NCBI GenBank assembly: GCA_020137815.1
Contig: CM035351.1
Span: forward strand, 5,456,001-5,520,000
Length of the DNA: 64,000 bases
Origin: Hormiphora californensis
Taxonomy: Eukaryota > Animalia > Ctenophora
Direction: 5' to 3'
The notes under the pieces are model-generated. The model saw only the letters and a program-made list of their open reading frames with translations. It did not search any database and had not been told where the DNA came from. Shown in pieces: positions 20,401-64,000 of this stretch (its first letter is position 1; each line of letters opens with the position of its first letter). The position numbers were made by a program, and so were the translations under genes.

Positions 20401-21250
20401 TAAAAAAAAAAAAAAAAAAAAAATTCCCCCCCTTTTTTTCCCCCCCCCCCCCCCCAAAAAAAGACCCCCCCCCCCGAACGGGAAAAAAAAAAAACGGGAA
20501 AAACTTGGAAAAACCTTTTTTTTAAAACAAAAAAAAGGGAAAAAGAAAAAACAAAGGTACCAAACAAAAAAAGGTTTTTTGGCTTTTGAAAAACCAAAAA
20601 GGATAACGCGACCTTTTTTTCCCCCTTGCTGGGACGTCAACAAACAAAACGGAACTGAAAAAAACCCCCCCCTTACCCCCTTTTTCCCCCCCCCACCCTT
20701 CTGCTTTCCCCCTTTCCTCCTCCCCCCCACCCCTCTCTCCCCCCCCACTCTCTTCCCTCTCCCCCCTCCTCTCTTCTCTTCTTTCTCTCATTATATCAAG
20801 AAGATAATAAGTGTTTCATAACAACAGCAGCAGCACGTGTTGTGAATGTGTGTAGCTTCTGGGTAGGTTCTCTCCTAACAGGAAGGTGTCTGCGACCGTT
20901 CATCCCGGGGCCCCGGCCCCCCCTCCCCCTCTCCCCTCCTTTTTATCTCGTCACCTTTCCTATTTTTTTTTTTTTCTTTTTTTCCCCTTCGTTTCTTCCT
21001 TTTTTTCCCTTCCCCTTTTCTTTCTCCTTTTCCTTCTTCTTCTTCTCTCCTCTCTCTCGCATCTCTCCCCCTTCTTTTAGACCTTTTTTCAGTTTTTCGA
21101 CTTTCGTACTCTTTTGAAGCCACATTTTGTAATTGGTAATGTAATTTAGTGCTTTCCATATAATAATGAATGTGGCTTCTAAAAAAACGGGGGGCCTACA
21201 GTTTTTACACTAACACAACTTAGAATTTGTAAAATTATATCCACCCCCCC
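17400..21250. other. low-quality, homopolymer-inflated assembly consensus (also about 23300-24296; N gap 24297-24396)
   Basis: Abrupt switch to runs of A/T/G/C of all four bases, unlike the rest of the window. Confidence 0.9.
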
Positions 21251-22810
21251 ACTCCCCCTTTCTTTTCTGTGTTGCGCGTGTTTGTGAACATCATCATTTC
21301 CCCGTGGGCCGTGTCTGCATTCCATGTGCCATATATTCACATCGAGAATCGGTGGACCGTGAAAAACATGAAAAAGGGGAAATAAAACTAACGGATGTGT
21401 GAGAGAAATGGAGAAATGAACAGAGAGCGAGAGAGGGAGAGAGAGAATGATGGAAAGATGGAGAGAGAAAGGGAGAGTGATGGACAATTGGAGAGAGAAA
21501 GGGAGAGTGGGAGTGAGAGAGAGAATGGTCGAGAATGGTCTGCATAATATCATCCTCTTCAGTCCTCCTCCTCCTTGGTCCTCCCGCTATCCTTCCACAC
21601 TTTACACGCACTACACGTTTCTCACCATCTTTTGTTCATCACTGCATACAAATTCACACACTCCAATCATGTCGTGGAGATGGTCTGATCTGATGCATCT
21701 GATTTATATTCAGTTAATGCTGTAACAATTAGTATAAACGCGTGTAGTTACATTCTGTATAGTGCAGTTTGGGTAACTCTTATATTTTGATAGTCTGAAC
21801 TCTGAAGTTTCTGTTTGTCGTTCTAAACGGAAAGAAAAAGGGGGGAGAGAAGAATGTAATACAAGTGTAGTATGAGTCTGAAACTAAAGTCTCAGTTATT
21901 GATGACAACAGAGGGAAATAGACAATACAAGAGGAAGATATATAATGGGAAAGCAAAATGAGTAGAAGAGGAACAAAGAAAGAGAGAAGGGGAGATAAAG
22001 AGAGAAAAGAAAGGAGAGAGATAGAGGGAGATAGATAGAGAGAGAAAGAGAGAGAAAAGAAATAGAAAGAGAAAGGGAGGGAGGGTTGGACAAATAGTAA
22101 GTACAGCTGTAAATGAAGGCATTTCCTCTCCCAGTAATAATAGGAAATGACAGCAATCGTAATTGTTCGAGAGAGAGGGAGAGAGAATGGTAACATCTAG
22201 AGAGACAGGGAGGCATACAGTTTGTCTGTAGATGTGGAGTCTAGGGTATCCATGCATTGCAACTGCATGGGTAAAGAAACCATTTATAAGTTCTAGAACT
22301 AAGCCATCTGACTATTAGTCATCCACTTATGTTACACATAAGTAACAGAAGAAGTAAGTGACAATCAAGAAGGTTATTACAGTTGTAATATTTCGAATAG
22401 TGCGAAATGTTTATTGTTGGTTTGAACGTCCTCCTCCGTCCATTGTGTTCGTCTGTGTTGGTTTGTCTGCATATGATTCCGCGTGTGTAATATAATGTTA
22501 TAATATTTAAAGAAGCTATATAACACACCGTGTGTAACGCTTCATCGCCCTAGCATAGTACAAACTAGAATGGCATATTATGTCCTCTCTCTCTCTCTCT
22601 CTCGTTCTCTATCTCGCTCGATCTCTCACCATCCCTTCATTTATAACCATGTATCTCTTTCTCCCTCACTTTCCCTCACCCTCCCTCTCGTTCTATCTGT
22701 TTCTGTCCCAGGTACAATGTGTTCATATTCGTTCCCCTGCTGCAGCACTGTGTAACAAGGGTCGCCCAGTGTACCCACTATTATAGAGCTCTCCTTCTCC
22801 TCTGTCTCTC

Positions 22811-22889
<79 letters not shown>

Positions 22890-22892
22890 CTC

Positions 22893-22943
<51 letters not shown>

Positions 22944-24429
22944 CTCTCTCTCTCTCCCCCTCTCTCTCTCTCTCCCTCCAGTGGGCCTGACGCACTACAC
23001 GTGCCAAAGTACACGGGGTCGTGGTGTGTGTGTGAGAGTGTAAAAATTAACACTCACTCTGCTACAATTGCTGCTGCTGTACCCCTCTAAGTGTCTCTAT
23101 CCGTTAGAGGCCTTGGTTCCATCAACTATGCACACTCGCATTCCCCGACACAATTGGACACAATGTAGTTACCAGAATAGTAATACATGAATCGACCCAA
23201 TTTCCCGATAAATATATGACTCTCTCTCTCTTCTCCCTCTCTTTTTTACCCTCCCTATCCATGTAACATATAATGCAAATTTCCAGTTGTCTGAGAGACA
23301 CACACACACATGGGTGGGAACATTTTCCCCTCTCCCCATGGTTGGGTTTTTACACAGCGCTTTTTCATAGTTTTTGTTCAATTGAATCCCTGCTAAAATT
23401 TCCCCTCCCTTTCCTCTCCTCTCTTCACCCCCCCCCCCCCCCCCCCCCCTCCCCTCTCCCCCCTTTTCCCCCCCCTTTCCCCCTCTTTCTTTTTCCTCGG
23501 CCCCCTCTCCCCCCTCTTTTCTTCCCCCTTTTTTAAAAAGGGGGGTTTTTTCATGTTGTAAGTTTGCTGCCGGCTCTGATATATACTTCCCTGTACTTTA
23601 ATTTAGAAAAGTATTTAAGAGATAGAAAGTCAGACTTCTGATACGGATAGAGAGAGAGGGGGGGGGGCAGAACAACAATGAATCACTGTATATCAAAAGC
23701 AGGGCGGTTTGGTGTTATCATTTGGCACAGTTCCCTCTCTTTACCTGACACCTCCTAAATTCTAGGCACGCGAATGCCATTTTACTCAGTCAGTCTCGAC
23801 TATCAATTCTTCCCAATATATATTCTTTCTATTTTCATTCCAAGTATCTCTCCCCTTTTTCAAGGGTTACACATCTTGCGCGGATGGATCTGGGGTGTCG
23901 TTGTCAAGGGGAGAGGAGGAGGTTGAATTCACAGTCCTTCTTTTGTTTCAAAAATTTTTCCCGTCGCTTTTCCCGTGTACCCTCCAAAATTATCTATTTC
24001 TCTCCCACACTATTTTTCCCCCAGTCCCCTTTTTTTTCCCCCTCTCCCCCCTTATCTCTCCCCCCCTTCTAGTTTCTTCCCCCCCGTTCTTGTCGTCCCT
24101 CCTTTAAATTTTATGGTAAAACCCGTAAAAACCGCTTTATTTTTTTCCTTCCCCGCGCTTCTTCCCCCTTCCCCCCCTCCTCCCCCCCTTTTCCCTCTTC
24201 CCCCCCCCCCCTTTTTATTTGCCTGCCCCAATTTCCTCATCCCACCCAAAACATGTTGTTTCCCTGCCAATCCCCCTCACAAAACAAGCGGGGAGANNNN
24301 NNNNNNNNNNNNNNNNNNNNNNNNNNNNNNNNNNNNNNNNNNNNNNNNNNNNNNNNNNNNNNNNNNNNNNNNNNNNNNNNNNNNNNNNNNNNNNNNTTCT
24401 TTTCTCTCTCTATCTTCTCTTCTTTCCCT

Positions 24430-27400
24430 TCTTACCAAAACCCGCACTACACAAACATCTATGTCGCCGCACGTGTGCAGTGGAGAGATAGAGAGAGAGG
24501 AAGAAACAGAGAGATAGGGAGAGAGAGAAACTTGTTCAAACTTCTGGGAAATGAAGCTTTAGTAAGGTTTGCACGGAAAGCAAAAGTTTACAAATTACCA
24601 CTACCACACACAGGTCACCATCCAAATTAGTAACGACTTGGCACAGATCATCCACCAATCAACCGTTCACTGTCTGCTTCAATCTCCATAATAGACGCTG
24701 GTATAGTACATTCCCTAAATACACACACTGTCTATTGTCTACGCTCGATATAATTGAAAGAGAATTAGACGCTTCTTTGCGCATTTTAAGTTGGTGCAGA
24801 TATTCAAGAACTGAAATATTTCATTCAATCGATTTTCCGTGTTGAAATATTCAGGATTGTGCAGAAGTCGGATTTTTTGAAGTTGACAACTTCAAAAAAT
24901 CCGACTTAACATATATTTTTAAAAGACATTTGAAACTCGTGTTCATTGGTGTAGTTCCTGGTCGGGGCCATAAGCCATAATAAGCTAGAATAAACAAAAC
25001 AGGCCAAGCGTAACGCATGGCCGAACATTACATAATTAGCGTAACCGCAATAATATCAAGCAAGCCTTACATCATATCAGATATTACCAACAAAAACCCT
25101 CCAGCAGACAGCTCTGACCCAAACCCCTCCCCCCTCCAGCACCAGACAGAGAATGGATTTATAGAGGAGCTCGGGACTCCCTCTCCCTCCACCTCGTCAG
25201 TAAACAGCCCCGGATCAACAGCATCAGACACGCCGCCCTACCTCCGGAGAAACTTTGCAACGAGAATGCGGAAAGGTGGTTTCAATTCGACCCATGAGTA
25301 TGAAATGGTCAGCTGCAGTGGGCATCTCAGGAAGTGGAATGAGGTAGCAAGAAGTGCAGCCATGGACGGGGACATGTTCCCTCAGGTATAGATATTAGTC
25401 TGTTTGTTGTTCTGTGTGTGCGTGAGTTTGTCTGTTTGTTTGTTTTTTCCTTCGTTTGTTTGTTCCTTCGTTTTTGTTGTTGTTCCTTTCTTTGTATCTT
25501 CAGTAAAGATTCTTCAGCCCCCCCCCCCCTCCATTACACGCCGTCCCCTATCAGGACGGGTACTGTTTAGTGGGTGTTGGTAGACTCCAGTCGACACAAA
25601 CTATCAGAGAAATGACGTCAGGAGCTCCCTCCCTAAACGCCTGGACCTCCCACCATAGGATGGACGCTAAATACATCTACGTGGACCAAAAGTGAGTTGG
25701 ACAAAATAATGGATACTTTGTACAATATTTTTGGTTGATTCTCTCATGTTGAGGGGGTGATCCCTGTAGTGATCTCACGGGGTTCGAAGTTTGGTCAGGC
25801 ATAGAAGACTCAGGATGTTACAAAGGTGAACAAATTTCAATAATTTCAATTTATTGAAATTTGTTCACCTTTGTAACATCCTGAGTCTTCTATGCCTGAC
25901 CAAACTTCGAACCACGTGAGATCACTACCGGGATCACTCCCTCAACATGTCTCTACCACGGACGGTGCCATCAGCCCTATAAAGCTGATCCATTGATTCT
26001 CTCAAATGTATAACTGCATACTAAACGCCCCCCCCCCCCCCCTAGTGCGCCATCCATTGTGGGATACTCCGCTGCAGAGCTACTGGGATCGAGTGCCTAC
26101 AATCTCTATCACGATGAAGATCTCAGTGGACTTGCTCGCAGCCATGTGGAATGTAAGTGCAGTATTTTCACAATGCTGTTATACACAGTACACACTGTTC
26201 TCCACATATAATATTTCAGAAATTATATGCATATATCAGAGTTATTGCAAGAACAGCTGGTCCCTTTCTTTTTATGAATCATAACCCCCTCTCCCTTACC
26301 ATCTAGTAAATAAGAACGGTACTGGCATGACGGGTCTGTACCGGTTTCTAACCAAGGGCCAACAATGGCTATGGATCAAGACCCATGGTATCCTGCAGTA
26401 CCGGGAGGGAACTACTGTTCCACAGTAAGTTCTAACAGTTGTATGCAATTTCTTGGTGCGCCATTATCAATTTACAACTGATATCAGTGATATTTGATAA
26501 TGGTGCACCAAGAAATCACATGATATTATTTCACAGTTTCAGTATTCAATTTCGATTCAATACCGGCTACCATGGTCCCCGGACCACTCAGTGTGTAGTT
26601 TTATCTTCACCTCCTGTATGAACTCCCTGCACAACCCATCCATCAATACCACTCTTCCTGTTCAATTTCACTCATCCCTCCAGGTCCGAAACTCACCCTT
26701 TCTCCAGGTCCGAAACCCACCCTGAATATCACCCCCTCCAGATCCGAAACTGACCCTCTCCATGTCCAGGTCCGAAACTCACCCCAATACCCACCCCCTC
26801 CAGGTCCGAAACTCACCCTGAATATCACCCCCTCCAGATCCGAAACCCCGAAACCCCTCACCCCCTCCAGGTCCGAAACTCAACCCACTCCCCCTCTCTC
26901 CAGGTCCATTATCTGCCACAATGTAGTAGTCAGCTACGGAGAGGTATGGAAGTACCTGCAGAGCAAGTCAAGACAGTATGGACCCAAGGAGAAGTCCTTC
27001 CTTACACCCATTGCACCACCTCCCAAAACGACCGCCCTGCCAACCAAGTCTGAGCTGGTCGCTACTGACGGTGAGTCTTCTGTTACGGTTCGTTTATTTT
27101 TCAATTTTCTGTCCCCCCTTTATTCTTTTCCGGGATTATTCTGTTTTAACCCTTGCATATTAAATATTCAACCTTTCCATGGATCCACACAAAAGAAAAT
27201 GTGCGGAAGAAGAGGGAGAGAGAAGAGAAGTTTTAAAATCCTAGAGATTCTAGAGTATTAAGAACATATATACTGCTCAGTGTGTGTGTGCGTTTGTTGG
27301 TGTGTGATGTATCGACAAATTGTATCGAGCTCAGTGTCTTCATGAGAAAGAAGGGAGAGAGAGAAATGAAGATAGAGGGAGAGAGAGGGAAATAGGGATA

Positions 27401-29822: not shown

Positions 29823-35937
<6,115 letters not shown>

Positions 35938-37296: not shown

Positions 37297-38042
37297 ATGC
37301 AACGGCTCTGTGCTGTACGTTTGTCCAGACAAGTCTGCACGCGGGATAAGTCCTCAATTAAAGTTTACGCTGACACAGGTTGTCGGATATCATATCCAGA
37401 GGTGCAAACTATCGCAGAAAGAGCCAATCAAACGGGTATACATTTAACGTTTGTTCGAGCATTTGATACCAGTATGAAATATCCAAGAATAATGCTGCAC
37501 TTTTTATCTACTAAATACTATCTATGATTTAGTGAAATATCCAAGAATAATGCTGCAGTTTTTATCTACTAAATACTATCTATGATTTAGTGAAAAACAT
37601 CAAACTAAAGCTGGGTATCTTTTAGGGAAACATCCTATTGAAATTGTGGATGTGTTGACTCGGTCCTACAATTCTGAACTCCATGGAGGTTTGACAAGAA
37701 GAGATGCTATGTTGGAGTTTCATGTCAGGACGGAAAGTGGGGAGATAATAAAGAATGTTGATGCCATTTTGTTTCTCTACAAGCATGTTGGTTAGTTTAA
37801 CTTGGTAACTTCATTGATTAATTGATTGACTTGCCGTTTCTTCTGGTTTCCTTTCTTTAGATCCAAAAGTGTACTGGCTACTTCGACCATTTTATATCCC
37901 GCTCGATCTGATATTTCGACATGTCTGGCTGCCCAACCGGTTTCAGCTCTACGGAAGGTGTGATGTAAGGATGGAGTTGGAAGAAGATGAACGGTACCTC
38001 AAATGGAGGAAAAATTTAGGACAAAAGCGATTGGGAAAATGA
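37297..38042 (+). CDS. DCC1-like (DUF393) thiol-disulfide oxidoreductase family protein, probable mitochondrial presequence
   Basis: Exons at about 37297-37435, 37626-37790 and 37861-38042: MQRLCAVRLSRQVCTRDKSSIKVYADTGCRISYPEV..IEIVDV..GLTRRDAMLEFHVRTESGEIIKNVDAILFLYKHV..WLPNRFQLYGRC. This matches the recalled family pattern (YDxxCxxC, HV...G...DA, NR..xGR). Confidence 0.8.
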
Positions 38043-38177: not shown

Positions 38178-41100
38178 ATGAGTAAACGTCCGATAACAGA
38201 CCTCCAATCGGACGATGATTCAGATGTCGATCTTGATGAGGAATTCAGTGAGGATGAATTAGATGAAGTCCAACCAAAGAAATCAGCACCGAAAAAGTAA
38301 GATCTTTATAGTACATAACTCCCTCCCGCGCGGGCAGTTAATCAATAGACGCACTGCAGAGTCCCGAAGGGACCCGTGCGTTACAGCACTGTAAATCCCG
38401 AGCGTCAGCGAGGGGTTTACAGGTATATCTGCACGCTAGGGAGGGAGTTATGTTCTATAGACCCCGCTGGCGGGCACCTAGAAGCAAAACAAGCACAATT
38501 TACGTGGTTCTCAAACATAGAGCTCACACAAAACGGGTCAAACAGTTGGAAATGAAGCCACAGATTGCCTCTCTACATTCTTACACACTCGTAGCAATCG
38601 TTTTAACAATTCAAAAGGGTGGAATGCATAGAGAGATAACAGTTAATTGTGGGTCAAGAGGAACAGTTGCCAACAGACTGGCGGGCGCCAAATCTAGACC
38701 GAGAACGTTGTAGGTTGTACACACACTCCCTCTTGTGTTGCCACGTCATTTTATCGTGTTTCCAGTGATTCTTTGTGATCTTTACACAAATCTGTCAGAG
38801 GGCGTGCGTCTATCGAGATACAAACTCACGGCAGTGCACGGCCCAATAGACCAGTGCAAATTGTTCAAGCGCGCCGTGCGTCTATTTTAGCCAGCGGGGT
38901 CTATATACATTTGTTTCATTAATGCACCGGTTTATTGTCCCTTCCCCATTCGACCCATTATATGACCCCTTTCTCCCCTAGATCAAAATTCCTGCGGATC
39001 ACAGACTTCATCCAGGACGAGGCTGAGGTGGATGATGATGCGGATGACCTTGAGGAAGATGATGACTTGGAGGAAGGGTACAGTGAGCTGGTGAAGGAAG
39101 GTGCCGAGGAGCCGGAGGATGGGGAAGATGCTTACAGTAGTCGAATGAGGCTGCAACATATCATGGACATCGAGGAAGAGGACAAGATTGAGCAGTATTA
39201 CAGGTAGGAGTTGTTTGTTAGTTAATTTCTGTTTTGTTCATCTTTTTTCTGTTTTGTCCCTGTTTTGTTCCTGTTTAACTCCTGTTTGTATGGTTTCCTT
39301 GTGATAAATCTACGAATTGTTTAGGAACAAGTACGCCGAAGTTGACGACCAGGATGTTATTGACACCAGTGGGTATGCTAAGAACGAGGAAGTAAAACAA
39401 CAAAGTGCACTACCGGGTGTCAAGGATCCCCGGCTGTGGCAGGTTAAGTGTCGGATAGGAGAGGAAAAGGCAACCGCCATCAAACTCATGCGGAAGTTTA
39501 TAAATTTGGAGGCAAATAATGATCCACTTCAAATCAAATCAGTTGTTGTTCCTGTTGGTGTGAAGGGGTGTATTTACATTGAGGCGTACAAGCAGACCCA
39601 TGTAAAAGCAACCCTGGCGGGAGTGAACGCTCTGGGAATGGGGAAGTGGCAGCAGCCTATGGTACCCATTAATGAAATGCCTGATGTCCTCAAGGTGAGT
39701 CGACTATCTTTTTACTCGTCTCTAGTTGTTCTACATGTTCGAACGTGTTCTAATATTCGCTTGTTTATTTTTCACTGAAACCATGTCTCTCTCTCACAAT
39801 TAGGTGGTTAGCGAACCGTTGGCGATAAAGCAGAATTCTTGGGTCCGGATCAAACGGGGAATCTACCGGGATGATTTAGCACAGATTGACTACGTTGAGA
39901 ATAACCAAAACAAGGCTCTCTGTAAGCTAATCCCCCGGATAGATTACAAGAAGGTGAAAGCTGTCTACAAGGATGGAGAAACCGTTAATAACTTCCGGAG
40001 GTCTGCCAAGGGACGGCCGTCACAGCGAATTTTCAAAGCTGATGAGATCAGAGGTCTGGGAGGAGAGTTGAAGAAAGATGGAGATTTTATCATTTTTGAG
40101 AGTAACCGATACCGTAATGGCTTCCTCTACAAGACCCTATCCTTTTCCGGTATTTCCATTGATGGCCAGAAACCCACGGTTGAGGAACTGAAAATGTTTG
40201 ACGAGCAACCAGACAACGTTGACCCGGAGAATCTCCCCTCGGAAAAGAAGCTAACCACAGATGCAGTGTTTTCAGCGGGGGATGTGGTAGAGGTGTCAGA
40301 GGGAGAGTTGATTCACATGACGGGTACAATTATCAGCATAGCAGGAGATAAAGTTACCATTGTGCCAAACCACGCTGATCTGGCTAACGCTGGAGCACTG
40401 GAATTTCCAGCCAAGGAACTCCGGAAGATTTTCAAAGAGGGTGACCACGTGAAAGTGATCAATGGAAGTTTGGAGGGCGAGACGGGTGTTGTTGTGCGGG
40501 TAGATGACAATATTGCGGTGTTAGTCGCTGATAAAACCCTTGAGGAGTTCAAGGTTCGACCCCGGGACCTCCAGCTATGTACGGAAATGAACTCCGGTGT
40601 GGACAGCCATGGGATGTACCAGATTGGTGATGTGATCGAGATAAACCAGAGTACTGTCGGGTATATCGTTAGGATAGAGCGGGAATCGGTCAAGGTTCTC
40701 ACTCAGTACGGGAAAACTGAGTCAGTGAATAACAGGGCCATTATGAGGAAACTTCGGTGTGGCCAGGCCTTGGATTCACAGCAAAACTTCCTGAAGCACA
40801 AAGACATTGTTGATGTGAATGATGATAAGAAGAGAAGGGGAGAGATCAAGTTTATCTGGCGTCATTTCTTGTTTTTGTTTAACCGGGGTTTAGCGGAAAA
40901 TGGTGGAATTTTCGTTGCTAAATCACGCGGTGTAACGTTACCAGGTGCAAATAAGTCCACTGGTAGTTTTGTTGCGGCCTCCCCCCGTCTCCAGTCACCC
41001 TCTCGGAGTCCAATGCGGGCTGGGGGTGATGGTGGTGCGTCACCCAGGCATAGCCGAGGAGGGGGCAGAGGGGGCAAGAGCCAACGAGACAGAGAGTTCA

Positions 41101-42179
41101 TTGGCAAGACGGTCAAGGTTAAAACTGGTCCATACAAGGGTTATGTGGGTATCGTCCGGGATTCAACGGACACCACTGCCAGGATTGAGCTTCACACGGA
41201 CTGCAAAATCATTTCCGTCGAGCGGGGTCATCTTGCGGAGGTGACGACTCTGGCAAGTGGAGGTCACATCACTCCCTCCACTCCCTTCATCAACAAAACC
41301 CCCGCCTACACGAACAACCTGGGTGGAGCTACCCCAGTTTACGGGGCTCAGGGTTCACGGACACCCATGCAAAGTGGAAACAGGACACCCATGTATGGAT
41401 CTCAGACACCGTCCAGGGGAGATCGGACACCCTACTATGGCGCCCAGACACCCACCCATGACGGCAATGCGACCCCTCGGGCGGGATATAGTGCTTGGGA
41501 TCCCAACTGTCCGAACACTCCTGCCCGATCATCATCTGATGATTTTAATGATTTCTACGAGAACTCACCCTCACCTGCTCCCTTCAGCCCAGCGAACCCC
41601 CAGACACCGGGTTACGGTGAACCAATGACGCCAGGGTATGCCATAGACAGCATGGGTCCAGCCACCCCGGGCACTGATTACAATACCAGTAGTGCCCCGA
41701 GCCCGGCTTCTCCCTACACAGAACCCTCACCCTCACCGGGCGAGTCCAGTTTAGGACCCCCGTCCCCCGGATCAGACAGCTCCGTACCCACACCCTACAG
41801 TAACCTGGCAAGTCCAATGACCCCAGCATCAACACAAGAAAACTGGCCTCTCAGTGGCATTGAAGTTGTCATGTTAGAGAGTTTCGAGGATGGCCAATAT
41901 ATCGGCCAAACGGGATACATCAGGGCTGTGTCCGGGCCCATTTCAACTGTCTGGTTGTATGAAGAAGAACGGGAGTTTGAGTGCCAGAGTTATCAGATGA
42001 AACCTGTTGTGCCGAAGAAACAGGACAAGGTTGTGATAATAACCGGAAACAGGAGGGGTAACCACGGGCAGCTAATTAACATTGACAATGACGATGGTAT
42101 CGTGAAGGCAGACAAGTCCCTGGAGTTGAGGATTCTAAAACTGGATTCCCTCGCAAAGTTATCCGCTCACCACATGTAG
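38178..42179 (+). CDS. SUPT5H: transcription elongation factor SPT5
   Basis: Exons at about 38178-38296, 38982-39203, 39325-39694 and 39804-42179. Acidic N-terminus, LPGVKDPRLWQVKCRIGEEK NGN domain, multiple KOW motifs, GSRTPM/TPMYGSQTP CTR repeats and a C-terminal KOW. Confidence 0.99.
38313..38905. mobile_element. non-autonomous multi-hairpin element (Crypton-like, tentative) in SPT5 intron 1
   Basis: Branched palindrome 38313-38453 (inner gtcccgaagggac and ctgtaaatccc..gggtttacag). Inverted repeat tatagaccccgctggc 38456-38471 pairs with 38890-38905. Confidence 0.6.
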
Positions 42180-42463
42180 AGAGAGGGTATGTGCATTGGG
42201 GAGAGGGGATAGTTTGAACTTGGTAAAGATTGAAGTATGATGGTTGAGTGGTTTGTGGGTGAAAGGTGCTTTATTCATTTTTCAGTGTGACAATATTGCA
42301 ATATCAATATGTCACTGTATCATTGATTAATATTATTCAACACGTTTGACTCTTATTTAAATTGATCGTTTTAATCTACCTCTACATTATGGAGTCCATG
42401 AGTCTCTCCCATTTAACATAACACAAAGAAGTAAACCTTCCCATCTCTCTCCTCCTAGCTAGC

Positions 42464-42823
42464 ATGTCTATGGCATCAGACCCCCGGTCCGGTTCGCCGG
42501 CCTCCTCTCCCCTCTTCTCTCCCCCTGCCTCCCCAGCTGGCATGTCTCCAGCGGGTGGTCCAGGCTCCCCCGGTGGCATTGGATCCCCTCCCAACAGGAT
42601 CTCTCCCTCTGGCCTGAGCCCATCCATGCACGACCAGAACCTGCAAGCAGCTGCTGCCACTGCAGTAGGGTCCACTGTCAAGAAAGCCATGATTTATGTT
42701 TGTGGGGAGTGCCGTGGTGACAACGAGATCAAATCACGTGACCCGATCAGATGTCGGGAGTGTGGCCATCGGATTATGTACAAGAAGAGAACTAACAGAA
42801 TGATGGTCTTCAACGCACGATGA
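42464..42823 (+). CDS. POLR2K: RNA polymerase I/II/III shared subunit RPB12 with a long Ser-Pro-rich N-terminal extension
   Basis: C-terminal [44 protein letters not shown] is the RPB12 zinc ribbon. Intronless 119-aa ORF directly after an acceptor-like ctcctcctag. Confidence 0.97.
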
Positions 42824-42984
42824 GTTACAAGAAACACTACAGATAGAACTGTTTTAATATTTTTGCAAAATTAACACTTATTTATGTCTTTCAAAAGTCG
42901 TACCAGTTCATTTTAACAAGCGTAGTTTAATGTCTAAACTCTCAAAAGTATGCACAACTAAATCCTATACCTTCTCTCCAAGTT

Positions 42985-44930
42985 ATGCTACAGGCTGTAA
43001 GGGTTCAGCGGGCCCTTTCAGGGGTGCAGCTGTTGAAGCGATTCCGTCACCCCGATACAAAACCTAGTGATCAAACTGTAGAGATTCAACCTCAACAGGA
43101 GCTCATCTCTCGAGAATTGTTACGGCCAATTAAATCAATCCGGAATGTTACTTTAGGTAAGATGGAATTGGTCTCACTAGAAACCGTTTTATATACCCTG
43201 CTAACTTAAATAATGCGCCAGTCCCACTAGCGCGCTCTCAATATACAGCCAGTCCAGCGGCAGATTATTTCCCACTGGCAGGTTATTTATTTTTAACTCC
43301 TATGTAACATTCAAAGTGTGTGTAAATGATCAGTTCTTAAACTGATCATTTAAAATACAGAGGGAACACTATGTGTAACACTTACACACTACATTGGAGA
43401 GAAAGAAAGGACACATTCCGTCAATTACTCTCTCTTTATCTCCCCTTTTGTCTCACTATCTCTTCCTCTGTGTTATGTGTGACATGCCCCTTATCAGGCT
43501 ATTTCTTTCACTCTCTCTCCTTAGCAACTGCTTAGTAACTGTTACCAAACAGTGTACACTCAATTGTGAGGTGTTTTTAACTATTTCTCAGTCCTCTTTG
43601 TGTGTTTTGATTAGTGTTCTCTCTCCTGTTAGTGTGTAATACTTGAAACAAACAACTAAAGCAGGGTATATAACCTATAAACTCTGACCACTGGCACGTT
43701 ATTGGTTTAAACCCCTCCGCCTCTCCCTCGGCTCCGCCTCGGGATCGTCGTCGTGATTTAAACCAGTTTATCCGCCAGCGGCGGATAAACTCCAGCTAAC
43801 TTCTCCCAGCGGCGCGCTGGGAGAAAGTTATCTGAAATAACGCGCCAGTGGCCAGAGTTTATACCTCATAAATACTTCTTGGTATCTAAGAAATCAGAAA
43901 GACTAATACATTATTTTCCGTGGACAGTGCACGACCAGCCGTTAGATGGATGGACTATGAAACAGCCCACCAGACCTAACATCCTCAGACCACGGTGGCC
44001 AGAGCAGTTCATTATGGAGCCTGTCTTTCAGGGCCGCTATGCAATTGTTGCTTTGGAAACATCCTCTCTGGGCTTCAAAAACATGAAGGTACATACACAC
44101 TAATAAATTACCTAGCTCGAGTCTTTATGGGACTAGGGAGTGTTTGAGAAATGAGAGTCCCCTACTCCCCTTATAATGAATTACTATTTTCAGGCCAGTA
44201 AAGAGTTTGTGAACAAATGGCTCACTCGAGGTATCCATGGGTTATGGGTCAGGTACTACCCCGACTACCCTAGATCTATCCGATTACCGGGCATGCCCAA
44301 GAACGGTGGCGGAAAGGGAAAAGTGAAGCAGTGGCACGATTACGTTCATGCAGGTTAGTTTTTATTATAATTTTAAAACAGGAATCTGAATCGTTTTTGT
44401 TATTTGTAAAGTGGGGAGGAAAACGTTTGTATTACTGTGTAAGTCAAGGATTTTTACCCGATACTATTTTCAGGGCGAGTTTTGATTGAGTTCGACTCAG
44501 ATCCTTTGACATCAAAGATAATATTTGACGGAGTGTTCAAGAGGGCAAAGTTGGCTGTAATGTTAGTCGATGGAAATAAACATCGCCAGCCTGGATTGGT
44601 AAGTATAACGGATTTTTGTAACGAATCAGTCAAATTCCAATTCCAACTACATATTTTAAGGTTTACCCGCCGGTCCTTATATCCATCGGTTTTTCACAGG
44701 TGACAGATATTGGAGGACGCGATAGGCTCGGACACAAAGTATACGACTACAAGATTGAACGAGCATGTGGATCAACCTACGTTTTCAGGCTACCAAAAGA
44801 CATGTACAAAGACAATGAGGGTACACGCTGTACAATGGAGACCATGCAATTAAACTATTCTCATAACAAGCACCATAGCTTTGGCAATGATCGTCTTCGT
44901 GTTAGAACGGGGACTGCTCACGGATGCTGA
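42985..44930 (+). CDS. MRPL16: mitochondrial ribosomal protein uL16m
   Basis: Exons at about 42985-43156, 43928-44088, 44194-44353, 44474-44598 and 44700-44930. Arg-rich presequence, then GRYAIVALE, LWVRYYPDYP, GGGKGKVKQW..VHAGRVLIEF. Confidence 0.88.
43189..43863. mobile_element. non-autonomous multi-hairpin element (Crypton-like, tentative) in MRPL16 intron 1
   Basis: Inverted repeat ttatataccctgct 43189-43202 pairs with agcagggtatataa 43660-43673. Branched palindrome 43676-43863 is an inverted, diverged homolog of 13451-13649. Confidence 0.65.
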
Positions 44931-45492
44931 GTATTTCTCACTTTAATAACGAAGTCCTGTTGTGTAAGTTATTGATCTAAAGTTCTGTCCATTCTCCAAA
45001 TCGGCGCCTCTTTTTGTCTCAAGTTTTGAACTGTGATCCCCGAACGATCTCCTTGTAAAGAAAGCACATCCGCGCGCACCACGCGCGTTCACATTCGTGT
45101 CATTGTCAGAAATGATGCGACGCGCAAATAACTCCAATTTACTCCGCAAACAACTTCATTTTCAGGATGAAAGCTCAGATAACCATAGAGACGGAGCAAC
45201 TTCATTTCTCTGCAGTTCATCCTCCGCAGCTGAAGAGTTTGGTATTTCTCATTTGTTACACTTGTGTTCCCCTTGTTGAGTGAAGCTAAGTAGTAAATGC
45301 ATTTGCAATTCAATCTCTTTTGATTACTTAGCGAGTACATAACAGCATTTTATATCCACCTTACAGTCACACCTTAGCAGTTCATGTCTTGCGGGGCTTG
45401 TAGCACTGTATCAACTATCATGTATGCCAATTCCACTTTCGATTTAACTCAACCGTTATATATCATTTCCCTATTTTCTAGGTTAAGCGGTT

Positions 45493-48400
45493 ATGACAAG
45501 TCAGGCGATGAAATACACCATTCCTTCCACCAAATATACCCCTGAGCATACCCGGTATGGTATGCCTCAGACTGGTGTCACTCTCCCTGCTACTCGTTAT
45601 ACCATCCACGAGTGGACTGGCTCCAATGCGAACCAGTACCTGACGTCAAGTACCGAGCGAACCTCTTCACTAAATCTGCGACTTGAATCTGAGCGACTCC
45701 GATGTGAAACCGCCGACCGAACACGACGAACCCAGAATGACATCAACTCCAAACTCCAGGACCGGATCGAGAACATCACCTACTGGAAGACTGAGGTTGA
45801 CCGACAGCTCCAGAAGACCGACCAGGAAATTGCCAACTTAATGGCGTCCAAGAAACAGCTCGAGCAGGCTCATGTGGCCACTCAGCTGCCTTTCGAGGTT
45901 GCCACAACCTGTCTGAAGCACCGAGAGGGCCGTCTTTCCATTGATCTTGTACACGATGATGTTGAGGTGCAACTGCTGAAGGTGAGTTGGGATAATCGGG
46001 GCAAATTGGGCAGAAAACATTTTGTGTCGAAATATCTGAATTGCTTGCTTGTGACATGCTTCTCTCTCACTGAGAGTCTCAGGGACACTCAAACTTAATA
46101 CATAACATTAGCTGATATTCAACATCATTTGAGATATTCACAAATCGATAATTGCATCTTGTGAAATATGTCCTTCAATGTGTGATTCATCCGTAGTGGT
46201 TTCAAGCCAGTACACCTTTTTAATCAATATACAGAGACCACAAAAGATGGTTCGCTTTTATTTCTCTCGCTCTTTTTCACAACCAATCCTTTTTCTCCTT
46301 GGCATTCCCCAAGCATTTCATGCTCTTTCCTCCTCACAAAAATGCCTGCACTATCTCTCCCAATCACTTTCTCTCCCTCTCTATCTCCCCCCTCTCTCCC
46401 TCCTTCTCACTTTGTGTGGTAAAGGTGTCTATCTAAATGTGTGCATATATTTGCCACCTTGGTCAGTGTGTGGATGTGCTGCAGTATGATTGTCCGTCAG
46501 TTGGTCTGTGCGTGCGTTGGTCTCACATGTGAAACTCAATTGCTCTAATAAGTAATGAATTGATGTACATGTGATCGCATTTTGTCTCTCCCCTTCACAA
46601 CTCTCTCCCCCCGCAGGAAGTTGAGATGATAGAGAACGTGCAGGCTCTTCTCCAGCAGCGCATTCACGAGAGTGATAGGCAGCTCAGGTTTGTTCTTGTA
46701 TAAAGTGTGGGAGTCTTGATATAGAGGGATATTGATGGAAAAAAAGAAGATGCTGGGAATAGATGAATAAACGGTGTCTCAAAGAGACATATTATAATAT
46801 GCACGATACATGACATAGATCATAGAGCTTACTAAGCTCAGCTTGAATCGGTAATGTGTTCTATCTGTTCTCTATAACTGACCCAACCTAGTTATTATAA
46901 GTGGAGTAATAAGTTAAGAAAAAACGAGAGAAGAGAGAGTAGAGATGAAGGAAATAGACCGCCAGTGCCATTATCATTGTAAATCATGATCGGCCGAAAG
47001 AGAGAATTAGGAAAGATACTGCCGGCGAGAGACTTCCTAGAACGAGATGGAGAAAGAGAGAGAGAGATAGAGAGAGATAGAGAGCGCAAAAAAAGAAAGC
47101 TATAACTGATTAGAGGTAGAGAAGGGATAGACAGAGAGACAGAGCATGAGTGCTAAAGTGTAGCTGTTTATAGGCGGAAGCTTAGCTGCGCTAATAGTTA
47201 GCATCAGTGATCTGTCTATTATTGTCCTAAGTAACCATGGAAACTCGAATCTACCTCTCCCTTCCTAATCTGGTATTTCAATCTGCGGTATCTTGTTTCC
47301 CTTCATCATTCTTTCCATCTCCCTCTCTCCATCACTACTTCTGTAGCAGTACAGTAATTAAGACTTTACAAAGTTACAACCTATTTCAGTGAGCTAAGGC
47401 ACTGTAAGAGCAATCTTGAGGCTGATCTGAAGGACAAATGCTCCTCCTACGGACTGGATTCCCGGTGTGCTGGGCTCCATAATGGCTCTCTTGGCATGAC
47501 CATCCACAATAATGCCGTCAAGATTGACCCCAAGTAAGCACCTTATATGCATGAAATATTAGCTACATAAATATCTAGTTAGCACTTATCTCCCCTCCCC
47601 CGGCCCCTCTCTATTCGACTTCTTTTAACCAGGTCTGCCACTCCTGCTTCCTATGAAGCGTTCTCTCACGACAACATCACCAATGCCGAGAAGCAGCGGG
47701 TCTCTTCATGCCGACAGAGGGAACTGAACGAGCACACCATGCACCAGACCTCCAACGATCTCCACAAACAGGCTGAGACCGTCAATGAGTCCTTCAGGAT
47801 TAGGATCCAGGAGATGATCACTGCCAAGACCAACCTCGAGGAAAATCTTAACCAGGTATAATATACTTTTGTAGTTTTTGACCTCTCTTTCTTTCTGTGT
47901 AACTGATCGATGTGCACAGTGTGCACAAGCAATAAGAGCCACCCACTCCAGTTGGCGTTGAATCGTTGAACTTTTTAAACTGATGATAACTGCTCCACCT
48001 GCTGCACAGTTGCCTGATGTATAACGGATTCAGAAACTTTCTAAGCTTGCGAGAATCAAGTGTGTTAAAATTCGGTTTCCAAACAAAGACTTGTGTGCAC
48101 GTTTAGTTTTTACACAACTCCCTCTCTCTCCCTCCAACTAACTGTGCAGCCGCAGAATGCATTATGTAGTCATTAGAATTAGAAATCGCTCGTGCATGAG
48201 TTTTTAAACCATCCTAGCTATCAATCCATCTCTCGGGGGCTTATCTTGCACGTAAACATGTGCATTCCTGAATGACTGTTACTTAGTAACTTCTAATTGT
48301 GATCTTTCTGTAGAGAGACCACAATTAGTTTTAAACAACGTTGCTTAGGTTTAGCACATGTTGACACACATAGGTTCAATAATGTATTGTGGGAGTAATG

Positions 48401-59064: not shown

Positions 59065-62000
59065 TTACATGTACATGTCAAGATTGTAGAACTCCGTTTG
59101 TCGCACAGACGGATCGTAGTAGTCGGTGATGGTGACCTGAGCTGCGGCGAGGTTGCTGACCTTGAACTCCTCGACGAGTGGCATGGAGACGGAGTACATA
59201 TCCGGGCTGATACCGGGCTTCACATACAAGTGAACCCTCTGTCCTCCCTCCTTGATATCAAATCGGCTAATGATGTCACTGGCTGAGATGGTTTCCGTGA
59301 CCAGGGCCTTTCTGAAGGTGAAACCAGTTGGTGCCTTCATCTCTAGTAGAACCATTGATGCAGACCTTTCCTTGTCCACCTTGAAGTCGGCAGATACCAT
59401 GAAGTAACTGGTGATGGGATCCCGTACTGCAGACAACTTCAGTCCAAACACCGCACTAGACTGGTTGGTGGCAGTTGATTGGTGGTAGGTTGATATCAGC
59501 TGGACAAATGAGGTTCCCATTCCAGTCCATTTGATCTTGTATTTTCCGGTACTGGCAGGGAGGTCCACCTCCTTTACAGACATATCCTCACCCTTAATCC
59601 GCAGCTTCTCGAAGTACGACCTGCCCTTTCCGATCAGAATGGTCATGTCCGTTTCAGCCATGGCGGGGGCGTTCTTGATGGCATATGTTGAGAGAGCCTG
59701 GAGGGCAACAACAGTATCCTGACTAGACCTGAAACCTCCTGTCTCAGACTTCTGAGATGCGAGCCAAAGGATCAGTGGAGTACTATCATCGAATTGATCG
59801 ATAGTCATGTAGTAAAGAGCAGCGTAAGCGGTCGCCTCGATGCTCTTGCTATCTCCAGGGGTACTGCAATCAGCGAACACATCATATCCGTCCCTGGTCT
59901 CAGTGACACATTGGTCCTCAATTTCACGGAAGTCTGCGAAACCTTGTTTGCGGCAGAGTGCCATTGCATAGGTGTTCATGTGAGCAGTACAGCAGTCCTT
60001 CAGGGGCGCTTCACGGATCAGCTTGTTGCACAGGAACTCCAACTTGTCACTCTCACCGTACGGTGATCCAAAGTCACATCGGGGAGAATCGTAGGACTCG
60101 AGGAGGGAGATAAGGAAGTATGCCAGCCAGTTAGATTCATCATTAAATTGGGAGGGTGCCCATCCTTGTCGTGCTCCTAAACTGGATACACTGTTGTAAG
60201 TGCTGATAAGGTTAGTCAGAGCCCTCCTGTCACCAGTCACCACATCGGTACAGGGAACGTGAACACTGGAGGGGAATTTAGCGTAGGTTCGGTAGACGAA
60301 GGCGGTCAGCCAGTGGCTTACCTCACTTCCCGAGAACACAGAGTAGCCATTGTACTGCCTGTAGGTCATCTGTCGTTGGAGACCCACATTCAGGTTGTGT
60401 TCGATGTTGTATTTCAGATATTCAGGAAGCTCAACCTCACTCTGTACGTTGTTTAGGTATTGGCTAGCAAACACGTTCACTGCAATTTTGTGCATGTTCT
60501 GTTCCCCGCATCCAGTTGGAAGTTGGATCAGGCTGGCGATACCAGTGGCAGCGTTGCCAAGGAGATCACTATAGGCAACCACCTTCAGGTCATGTGATCC
60601 GGGAATATAAGAGCTAGGCAGGTTTACAGACAGGACACGCTTTCTGGAGGTGATTTCTTCCTCAGTGATGAGAATGTTTTGAACATCAACGGTCCTCACG
60701 CCACCCGGCTGGACAAAGAGAGACCTCTCAATGGCATCACTGTCCCCAGCGGAGGAGGAAGCGGACACAGTTATGGGGTGTCGTCCTGCCTCGGTTAGAC
60801 TAACTGTATAGTTCACAGTAGAGAAAGAGTTACTCTTGATTTTGATGACTTTGCTGGTAGCTTCCCAGAGACTGCTGCTCACCCTGACCTCACATGTCAC
60901 ATCAGTTTCCCTGTAGTTGAACACGCTGATAGGGATTGTGATCCTCTCACCGACAATTCCAGAATACGGGAGGTCTAGCTTGATAAAGAAGTTTAGGAAG
61001 GTGATGAACTCGACATCATTTGAGAATCCCACTCCGTTCTCGGGGGAGAGACCAAAAGCACTTCCCTTCCACCCAGTGATGGTGTCAGGGGCAGTGACTG
61101 TCAGGATACTCTTTCCGTCACTATCAGTTGTAACGTCAGTCCACAGCCAGGACTCAGGGAAGAAGTTCCTCAGTCTGGGTTCCTCCGTATCATTTGACAT
61201 GTCACCTTCATCCGTCACTTCGTCAATGGCATCAGTGTAATAGCTATCATCTTCCTCCGCCATAGCCATCTCCATGTACTCTGTTCGGTAATAATCGCCA
61301 CCTCTTCCGGGTGATCCATACCTATAGTCGTAGTCATTCCTCCTCTTGACAGGTGGCTTGTAATCAAACAGGTTCATGTTGGTATCAATACCAACTCCCT
61401 CGCTGGACAGAAGATCCTTGACATCGATTATTTTCACCTCAGTGTTAGAAGTACACTGGTAGGGATCGTCCCGCTGGCATGACTGATCCTTCTCGCTGCC
61501 GGTATCCTGGCCTCGTAGGAAGGATAGGGTCTCCTCCTTGGTGAGAACCTTACAGGGAGCTCTCATCAGGTCCAGGGACTTGTCACTCATGGAAATACCC
61601 ACGAATGAGGTGGGGTCTCCCCTCAGGTAGGCGGTTATGTTTTCACCGGGTTGCCCCATCTCCTTGCTGAGCGAGAATGTCAGGGAATGAGGAAGGAACT
61701 CAGTTATACAGAGGTCCAAGCCATCAGCCATCAGATGTCCATTGCTCTCGTGGGCAGTCAGCACCAAAAGACGGGATCGTACATTCAGAGTATCGGGGAT
61801 GTCGAACTCTCCAGAGGTCTCGAAGAGCCCATTCGGCAGCTCCTTCCACTGAGGGTTATAGCTCGAGGAATCCACAATAACACCCTTGGACATGATTACC
61901 ATGAACAAGACATCCTGCGCCCGAGATGCTCGGATCACGTACTCGGCCCTATCCCCGGGATTATAAGTGACGGGTTGCTCCTTGTGGAACCTCACGAACA

Positions 62001-62545
62001 AGTCCTTGTGGGCTACCATCCTGTCCGGTTGGAAGCACGAGAACACCGCCTCACAGGCATCATCACTCTCCAGCTCGGCTGTAATCTTAACCGCACAGGC
62101 ATCTTCAGGGACCTCAAATGAGGCAAAAGCCTTACCGTCCTGGATGATCACCTCCTTTTTCTGGTAGGTCAGAGTCTCCAGACCGCTCACCATGGTTACT
62201 TGGACTGTGGAACCATCAACGGCAGCCTTTTGGGACAGCGCCTTGACATCCATTTCCACGTAGTATGGGAACCCAGTTGAGTAGTGACGTTGGGTGTTCT
62301 TGTTGAAGGTCAGGGAGACTGCAGTCTGACTAAACTCAACGAAAGCTGTGGCAGGTTCTTGTTCCTCCTGGGGGGAGTAACACGTTAGCTGTGGATAATA
62401 AAACTCCCCAATCCATTTAATGTTTAAAATCTTTGCAACAAGAACTTACTTCCTCGCCAACTCGGGCGGTGATGGTCAATGATGAGGGAGAGCACCAGGG
62501 GTTGAACAGGTACTTCGTCTTAGCCATTACCAAATCAAGATCAAA
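59065..62545 (-). CDS. thioester-containing protein (TEP/CD109/alpha-2-macroglobulin family), 5' part outside the window
   Basis: Exons 62450-62545 and 59065-62367 (about 3.3 kb). Motifs LRNFFPESWLW, PDTITGW, PTGCGEQNM (thioester), WLTAFV, GGFRSSQDTVVALQAL and the receptor-binding domain DYYDP. Confidence 0.97.
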
Positions 62546-62577: not shown

Positions 62578-64000
62578 ATAATAATAATAATAATAATAAT
62601 AATAACTATGTTTATATTCCGCCCATATCCGACAGGGACAGAGCAGCGGAACTGCTGCTGTCACTGAAGGATGATCTGAACGGTTAATATACTGGTAAGA
62701 CCTCGCAAACTTATCCCTAATAGAACAAAAAATAATAAAGAAAAAATACACCGGCTCACATTACTATCGGCTCACATAACTATCGGTGACTGATTACATA
62801 ACAGACTGAGTTAGAGTCCTGGAACTCTAAAAATTGATATAAAAGTCCGTAGATTGGAAACACAGAAAAACACTCGTGCTATGAAAAACCCCAATTTATG
62901 CTTCACACTTCTGCTCGCCACGAGCTAAAATACAGAAAAACAATTAAAAACGGGTACCAGCCAGAGCACATACCTCAGTAAGAAGGAGAGTGTTAAGAGG
63001 ACAGTCCAGTCTCACCAAAAGCCTCAGTGAAAAGACTAGTCTTGAGCTTAGACTTGAAAGATTCCACAGACTCAACAGCTCTCAGATCAAGGGGAAGCCC
63101 ATTCCAGACTTCAGGCAGGTAAACCGACGGACGTCTTCTTCTCAACTTGGAAGTCGCATTGACACTTGATAGCTTAGGGTACTTCAGCTTGAGGCCATCA
63201 GGCCAAGCATTTCCTCTAGTAGCCCGGATCACATGAAGTCCATCATCAACAGGGACCTGATCTTGCAGGTAGTCAGGGGCCAATCCATGTACAATCTTGT
63301 ACGCCATGAGGCATGCTTTGAATGTGACTCGTTGTTCCACAGGAAGAACATGCAACTCTTTCAAGTATGGCATGTAGGTGTCTTGGTGACCGTATAGGCC
63401 ATAAACAAATCTGACACACGAGTTCAAGACTCTCTGAAGGCTGTTGAGAAGCTTCTTAGGTAAGCCATGGTAAAGGACATTACAATAATCCAATCTTGAA
63501 ATGATGAGCTGCTTAACAAGGAGTATCTTGGTCGATTTATCCAGACATCGGTTTACTTGCCATAGATTCTTCAAAAGCAAACCACATTGTTTCTTAACAC
63601 TGTTGATTTGTCTCTCCATTGAGAGGTTGCTATCAAGGAACACTCCTAGTGTTTTTCCTGCATTACCCGTAAAGTCCACTGGGCTTATCTCCACTCCACC
63701 AAAGTCCACAGTGGGCTGATACACCATCTTATCCAGGGCACTGTTTTTGCCTAACAGAAGGAATTCAGTCTTTGCCTCATTGCACTTTAGCCAGTGCTTA
63801 CTCATCCACTCTTTCACACTTGACAAGCATTCCTCAGTCCTCTCCTTTGCCAGTTTCCAGTTTTCCTCATCAGGTGGTACAAAGCTGATGTACAATTGCG
63901 AGTCATCAGCATAAAGTTTAATCCTCAAGCCATAAGGTTTGACCAAATCTTGCAATTCCTCCACATACAGTAAAAACAACACAGGTCCAAGCAGTGAACC
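62578..64000 (-). mobile_element. L2-clade LINE 3' portion (RT C-terminus, 3' UTR, (TTA)n tail) in the TEP intron
   Basis: Uninterrupted ORF to stop at 62993 with LYADDSQLY, NEAKTE, LGVFLDSNLSM, SRLDYCN and LHVLPV. 3' end ..ggcggaatataaacatag(tta)n. Confidence 0.95.

Follow-up and report, generated by a model that had tools for sequence, protein, structure and literature searches.

The window analyzed here is a stretch of 64,000 nt from Hormiphora californensis, and its positions 42464 to 42823 on the forward strand carry an open reading frame (ORF) of 119 codons for RPB12 (RPABC4/POLR2K), a small subunit that is common to all three nuclear RNA polymerases in other eukaryotes and is among the smallest and most uniform of the polymerase subunits. 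The gene has a single, intron-free coding exon, covered by an RNA contig in which there is no joint. The RPB12 zinc ribbon (PF03604) was recognized at residues 78 to 109 (42695 to 42790, forward strand) with an E value of 5.8 × 10−16 and 58.3 bits against a cut-off of 24, the CxxC...CxxC pattern of the ribbon being present, and the human-type RPB12 chain in the PDB matched the ORF with an E value of 2 × 10−21. RPB12 chains of solved structures, which are 46 to 76 aa long, aligned from residue 58 onward only, while the basic C-terminal segment with its F-x-A-R terminus could be aligned as far as residue 119 against human-type, fly-type, and fungal chains; of the final 40 residues, 32 were identical to those of a mammalian RPB12. 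A whole-protein search of the Atlas yielded RPB12 clusters only, with a low score, and none of the 39 short matches of 30 to 64 aa was an RPB12 with the same core (best identity, 82%). These data confirmed what an earlier note on this DNA had read from the letters, namely, an RPB12 of 119 aa in which an N-terminal tail with nine Ser-Pro (SP) pairs precedes a normal zinc ribbon. Thus, the ORF is a real RPB12 with an extra N-terminal Ser-Pro tail.

As the earlier note had also stated, RPB12 lies directly behind SPT5 (38178 to 42179, forward strand), which is composed of four exons and gives a model of 1,028 aa in which KOW domains are present and the TP/SP repeats are intact (16 TP and 13 SP). 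The SPT5 stop codon is 284 nt from the RPB12 ATG, and the SPT5 3′ UTR is covered unspliced to position 42291 by an RNA contig (X1, record 4). The gene that begins 161 nt past the RPB12 stop (42985 to 44930, forward strand; 3′ end approximate) encodes a uL16-family ribosomal protein, probably mitochondrial, whose PF00252 match (E value, 2.8 × 10−4) falls under the curated cut-off; its introns at 43157 to 43927 and 44354 to 44474 were found joined in RNA contigs. Two intronic segments (38300 to 38910 and 43188 to 43870) align with RNA contigs that are divergent and differ in their flanks, which suggests small repeated elements, and the gene upstream of SPT5 contains a near-perfect tandem duplication of approximately 61 nt (37476 to 37598), either real or an assembly error. 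Elsewhere in the window, there is an uninterrupted frame of 1,126 codons on the reverse strand (59068 to 62445), which we take to resemble an alpha-2-macroglobulin/thioester-type protein, together with what are presumably a forkhead-like exon (31376 to 31747, reverse strand) and a reverse-transcriptase-like frame (62996 to 64000, reverse strand), and homopolymer-rich sequence of low-quality appearance flanks a 100-N gap at about 17700 to 24600.

Just before the RPB12 ATG is a pyrimidine tract with two AG dinucleotides at 42457-58 and 42461-62 (42437 to 42463, forward strand), a putative splice acceptor. A pyrimidine tract plus an AG at most 12 nt before the ATG was found for the RPB12, uL16-family, and tektin genes, a rule that holds at 4% of background positions, and SPT5 has the AG before its ATG but a weaker tract, so that three of the four genes pass. 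No good cis donor was identified between the SPT5 3′ UTR and the RPB12 acceptor AG: the upstream GT candidates are mostly inside the 3′ UTR, and of the two that lie past its end, one makes a poor donor and the other is only 28 nt from the acceptor. Since a good cis donor is lacking and, in an excerpt of the Hormiphora study, at least 56% of the long reads bear the trans-spliced leader (PMC8527503), the tract and AG likely constitute an acceptor for spliced-leader trans-splicing. The window contained no match to a segment of 16 nt from the Hormiphora leader. SPT5, RPB12, the uL16-family gene, and the tektin gene (38178 to 45500, all on one strand) thus probably form an operon-like, trans-spliced cluster, and the adjacency to SPT5 does not have to be explained in any special way, given that the next gene in the cluster encodes a ribosomal protein. 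A ten-codon ORF (42389 to 42421) lies upstream in the RPB12 frame and stops 42 nt before Met1; trans-splicing would remove it.

Two fusions were considered and set aside. Alternative splicing of SPT5 into RPB12 was rejected because no such joint was present in the eight RNA runs and SPT5 has its own stop after KOW7, with a contig over its 3′ UTR. The public 333-aa model of Pleurobrachia bachei, P0121 (EP00116_Pleurobrachia_bachei_P006316), comprises two RPB12 copies and part of uL16; the window shows the same RPB12-uL16 adjacency with a single RPB12 copy, and RNA contigs pass the RPB12 stop to reach 42843, so the fusion in P0121 is likely a prediction artifact.

The Ser-Pro tail comprises residues 1 to 56 (42464 to 42631, forward strand), with 15 Ser, 13 Pro, and 9 Gly and with no Tyr, Thr, or Lys. 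Its SP pairs start at residues 11, 15, 19, 23, 28, 35, 41, 47, and 52, giving a spacing of 4, 4, 4, 5, 7, 6, 6, and 5. When residues 1 to 56 were shuffled, the mean number of SP pairs was 3.5, and nine or more occurred in 27 of 100,000 shuffles (p = 2.7 × 10−4). Expansion of a DNA repeat was rejected as the origin of the tail, since its codons are varied and the DNA contains no real tandem array, the only tandem signal being a 19-nt match of 1.9 copies. The tail is followed by an Ala-rich linker at residues 57 to 74 (42632 to 42685, forward strand).

Three RNA contigs cover tail sequence. Contig X4 (record 26) spans 42471 to 42843 and holds tail and core in one piece with no joint, and X1 and X5 span 42541 to 42843 and 42497 to 42634, respectively. 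All three come from one study (P1) that used oligo-dT libraries, with DNA carry-over uncontrolled, and the runs behind them do contain spliced joints in the gene that follows; runs X3 to X8, whose word shares were small, were considered only where their contigs provide coverage. X4 differs from the window at 42766 and 42775, and both differences are synonymous and within the core, making them uninformative about selection on the tail. The 5′-most RNA base was 42471, and no contig from the eight runs reached the acceptor or the first seven bases of the ORF. This last observation leaves room for the tail being 5′ UTR, with the protein starting at Met56 or Met76, as does the fact that database models often over-extend RPB12 N-termini. 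However, the in-frame Met codons 1, 3, and 27 all precede Met56, and the start of the MHDQ segment, Met56, corresponds to V, A, or L in three related sequences (P0002, P0122, and P0123), which retain the frame, Met1, and all nine SP pairs. Moreover, P0001 is identical to the ORF protein over 119 aa, yet 4 of the 14 in-frame positions preceding Met1 differ, compared with none of the 56 tail positions (p = 0.001), and this divergence upstream of an identical protein places a constraint boundary at Met1. Taken together, these comparisons make a downstream start highly improbable, and translation very likely begins at Met1.

We then compared the window protein with its closest relatives. It is identical to the RPB12 unit of P0121 as well, and P0002, P0122, and P0123 grouped with it in a tree on the 48-column core with support of 95/85, the columns being few and the bootstrap unsettled; we infer that these three sequences are ctenophores. 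All four sequences, the window and the three relatives, start with M-S-x-x-S-D-P-R-S, and the invariant residues among them number 40 of 56 in the tail versus 9 of 18 in the linker and 43 of 45 in the core (residues 75 to 119). Within the tail, indels and substitutions fall between SP pairs and never inside them: the SP residues are invariant at 18 of 18 positions versus 22 of 38 for the other tail residues (Fisher p = 0.001 for four sequences, which the Fisher tests treat as independent although P0002, P0122, and P0123 are close kin). Conservation peaks in an (SPxx)4 ladder formed by S11, S15, S19, and S23 (42494 to 42535, forward strand), with 13 of 14 residues invariant and three successive S-x-x-x-S(P) steps in each of the four sequences. 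The four-step ladder has a p value of 0.023 given nine SP pairs, which is modest for a pattern picked after inspection. A second conserved block occupies residues 40 to 53 (42581 to 42622, forward strand) and reads G-S-P-P-x-R-x-S-P-S-G-L-S-P. No further tail-bearing RPB12 was present in the listed portions (120 each) of the 267 sequence matches and the 811 profile matches, or among the 39 short matches, and none of 80 metagenome-contig loci was of the tail type, the best identity in the tail region being <50%.

These results bear on whether the tail is a tolerated low-complexity extension of little function that persists through the closeness of the relatives. Across the homologs compared, the length and the content of the RPB12 N-terminus are freely variable, as that explanation would have it, but here the changes avoid the SP pairs, the tail is better kept than the adjacent linker, and the diversified codons with no DNA tandem array also speak against it; we consider it quite unlikely. 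The tail is very probably coding and conserved. The proposal that the lineage holds a restricted, conserved Ser-Pro tail translated from the first ATG was supported, with Met1, the frame, and nine SP pairs kept in three relatives and the downstream Met at MHDQ lost in them.

The AlphaFold2 model rendered the tail as low-confidence coil (pLDDT of about 47 to 56) with no secondary structure before residue 55, where a short helix was predicted (residues 55 to 65). This model was built on a four-row alignment and had a mean pLDDT of 54.5, being weak in the core too. The tail is probably disordered, as had been supposed; this conclusion derives mainly from composition, and the AlphaFold2 model is poor evidence for it.

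The tail had been described as "mini-CTD-like," and a true mini-CTD would be one to which the readers of the RPB1 CTD (capping enzyme and CID and SRI domains) bind, offsetting a degenerate RPB1 CTD or degenerate SPT5 repeats. Its S-P richness fits this description, hydrophobic-S-P units occur at three or four of the nine sites, and F-S-P-T-S is found in P0002 and P0122. Nevertheless, the label does not hold: the four sequences contain neither a YSPTSPS heptad nor S-P-x-S-P, and the tail offers no Tyr1 with a 7-residue period, as residues 1 to 56 lack Tyr and the spacing is irregular in the manner given above. Nor, at E values up to 10, did the tail match any PDB chain of RPB1 or SPT5, and it likewise had no match to the G-S-[QR]-T-P type of repeat or to PF12815. 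The neighboring SPT5 scored above the cut-off for PF12815, and since it has kept its own repeats intact, there is nothing for the RPB12 tail to compensate there; on ctenophore RPB1 heptad CTDs, the literature searched, which left most subscription papers outside, contained nothing. A special link between the tail and the SPT5 repeats was likewise not upheld, the alignment score of 49 falling short of the 60.7 averaged by shuffles in which the SP pairs were preserved. Duplication of the tail from these repeats was rejected, given that there was no DNA match and that the protein score was below the shuffles in 97% of 2,000. Thus, a mini-CTD is a quite unlikely reading of this tail.

To place the tail among RPB12 proteins at large, we counted S/T-P pairs ahead of the core in 249 other RPB12 sequences, these being the ones with a readable zinc ribbon among 260, with the 11 that lack the pattern left out. 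There were none in 195, one in 36, two in 7, three in 5, and four in 6, so the maximum outside the tail described here was four; of the six sequences that reach it, five are records of named ascidians and the sixth belongs to the Styela cluster. A general enrichment of S/T-P at RPB12 N-termini was rejected (35 observed versus 57.6 expected in 152 short tails). The ascidian RPB12 proteins (P0034, P0041, P0060, and P0258 to P0262, from Ciona, Phallusia, Clavelina, and Styela) possess a conserved tail of their own with three or four S/T-P pairs, which sit in G-R-T-P units and include full S/T-P-x-R sites. Among the proteins compared, the seven-residue motif S/T-P-S-G-x-S/T-P, which is present in the second conserved block as S-P-S-G-x-S/T-P, was found only in ctenophore and ascidian tails. 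Common descent of the two tails was rejected, because the whole-tail alignments did not exceed shuffles in any of four tests (p = 0.13 to 0.89), and these comparisons suggest that the tails are probably convergent. The separate ascidian tail suggests in turn that the RPB12 N-terminus has been used repeatedly for control of this type.

We propose that the RPB12 tail is a disordered, multisite proline-directed phospho-tail and that, on the assembled polymerase, it works as a docking arm switched by charge, with a probability of roughly 0.55. Of its components, multisite phosphorylation by proline-directed kinases is rather likely, and, if it occurs, action on the assembled polymerase is somewhat favored over a role in turnover. 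A priming proline-directed kinase of the CDK, MAPK, or DYRK class would first phosphorylate the C-terminal sites of the tail. The second block conserves S41-P-P-x-R and R-x-S47-P, which suit CDK- and DYRK-class kinases, and the full CDK site S-P-x-K/R is absent from the tail. Once primed, the ladder would be filled relay-wise in the order S23-S19-S15-S11; these serines are exactly 4-spaced, and this spacing is that of GSK3, for which an excerpt of one source gives the consensus SX3or4S(P) and a sequential relay on primed substrates (PMC5954166).

The ladder also invites an alternative, in which an FBW7/Cdc4-type phosphodegron, primed at S23 and phosphorylated by GSK3 at S19, marks unassembled RPB12 for breakdown and thereby sets the amount of all three polymerases. 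The ladder block does hold a weak FBW7-degron-like L-F-S-P-P-x-S-P, which appears as L-F-S-P-P-[A/T]-S-P in all four sequences, fits [TS]PPx[TS]P in each, and nearly fits phi-phi-S/T-P-P-x-S/T-P (PMC8955265, in part); the chance of such a match with two hydrophobic residues ahead was 0.005 to 0.013 in shuffles that keep the SP pairs. In contrast, it is relaxed at two positions relative to the optimum [^R][PLIVMFY][PLIVM]TPP[^RG][ST], carrying Phe at −1 together with Ser at 0, where one relaxation at most is allowed, and according to the excerpted text of the same source, motifs relaxed more than once were mostly weak or negative in tests (PMC8955265). The first lysines, K73 and K74, are >50 residues away, and a degron would account for only two of the nine SP pairs. 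We regard turnover by this route as unlikely.

For the docking arm, tethering to the zinc ribbon would hold the tail at the surface formed by the RPB2 protrusion and RPB12. RTF1 Plus3 contacts RPB12; no statement of this contact was found in the literature searched, and we do not count it as evidence. Arginine-bearing helices dock at this surface in mammals and fission yeast: in the parts of the sources available, Arg121 of U1-70K enters an acidic pocket made by the RPB12 zinc ribbon and the RPB2 protrusion (bioRxiv 10.1101/2020.10.19.344200), and helix arginines of Xrn2 enter the same pocket (PMC11695829). The tail would therefore lie near the U1-70K pocket, while U1-70K itself touches the zinc finger and not the N-terminus. 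With as many as nine phosphates added, the near-neutral tail could recruit and retain basic partners or readers of phospho-Ser-Pro, or compete for them. One might go further and imagine gating of the U1-70K/Xrn2 pocket, with an RPB12 phospho-tail grown twice, in ctenophores and in ascidians, in animals that trans-splice tight gene clusters; the gating would let Pol II read through internal poly(A) sites and skip U1 at trans-spliced starts, the tail providing a second, non-CTD phospho-code. This extension is speculative and very unlikely, and the RPB12 proteins of Macrostomum and Trichinella, which belong to trans-splicing phyla and have one or zero S/T-P, count against it.

The conserved, lineage-restricted Ser-Pro tail is what is new here, RPB12 itself being known. 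An N-terminal extension, phosphorylation, or a disordered tail of RPB12 was not described in the literature searched, which left supplements and most subscription papers outside. The excerpted text of a review of polymerase phospho-regulation names Rpb6, Rpb4, and Rpb2 and not Rpb12, and acknowledges regulation outside the RPB1 CTD as an open area (PMC13336285). An RPB12 of double length with nine selectively kept SP pairs, in an early-branching animal lineage, offers a natural test case with a short, swappable tail. Such a tail would bring all three nuclear polymerases simultaneously under kinase control, next to a surface that splicing and termination factors use; if it is inert, the finding is a lineage marker and an annotation correction.

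Compared with other RPB12/RPABC4/POLR2K/Rpc10 proteins, the window protein shares the zinc-ribbon core and C-terminus and differs by about 55 to 60 extra N-terminal residues with nine SP pairs. The ascidian tails resemble it as conserved S/T-P tails on the same subunit with the S/T-P-S-G-x-S/T-P motif, but they are shorter, Arg-rich, and contain Thr-Pro. Like the RPB1 CTD, it is a Ser-Pro-rich flexible extension on a polymerase subunit, although it is N-terminal, has nine sites only, and is free of Tyr and of the heptad period. With the SPT5 C-terminal repeats it has S/T-P richness in common (39% over 51 residues with the second repeat block of the neighboring SPT5), and it lacks their Thr-Pro and G-S-x-T-P repeat. 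GSK3 relay ladders and FBW7 phosphodegrons share with it the fourfold S-x-x-x-S spacing and the S-P-P-x-S-P core, while the tail departs twice from the optimal FBW7 motif; a GSK3-type ladder on a polymerase subunit was not described in the literature searched. The closest working analogue is the N-terminal tail of RPB6, and by this analogy the RPB12 tail would not be a heptad code. In the excerpted accounts, the RPB6 tail has TFIIH p62 as a binding partner and exerts an effect on Pol I, II, and III alike (PMC8754651). Both are flexible N-terminal tails on a shared polymerase subunit; the RPB6 tail is a phosphorylated docking site (PMC8754651; PMC13336285), as the RPB12 tail putatively is. The RPB6 tail differs in that it belongs to another subunit and another surface, is acidic and of the CK2 type (site at Ser2) instead of Ser-Pro, is widely conserved, and has a known partner, the TFIIH p62 PH domain.
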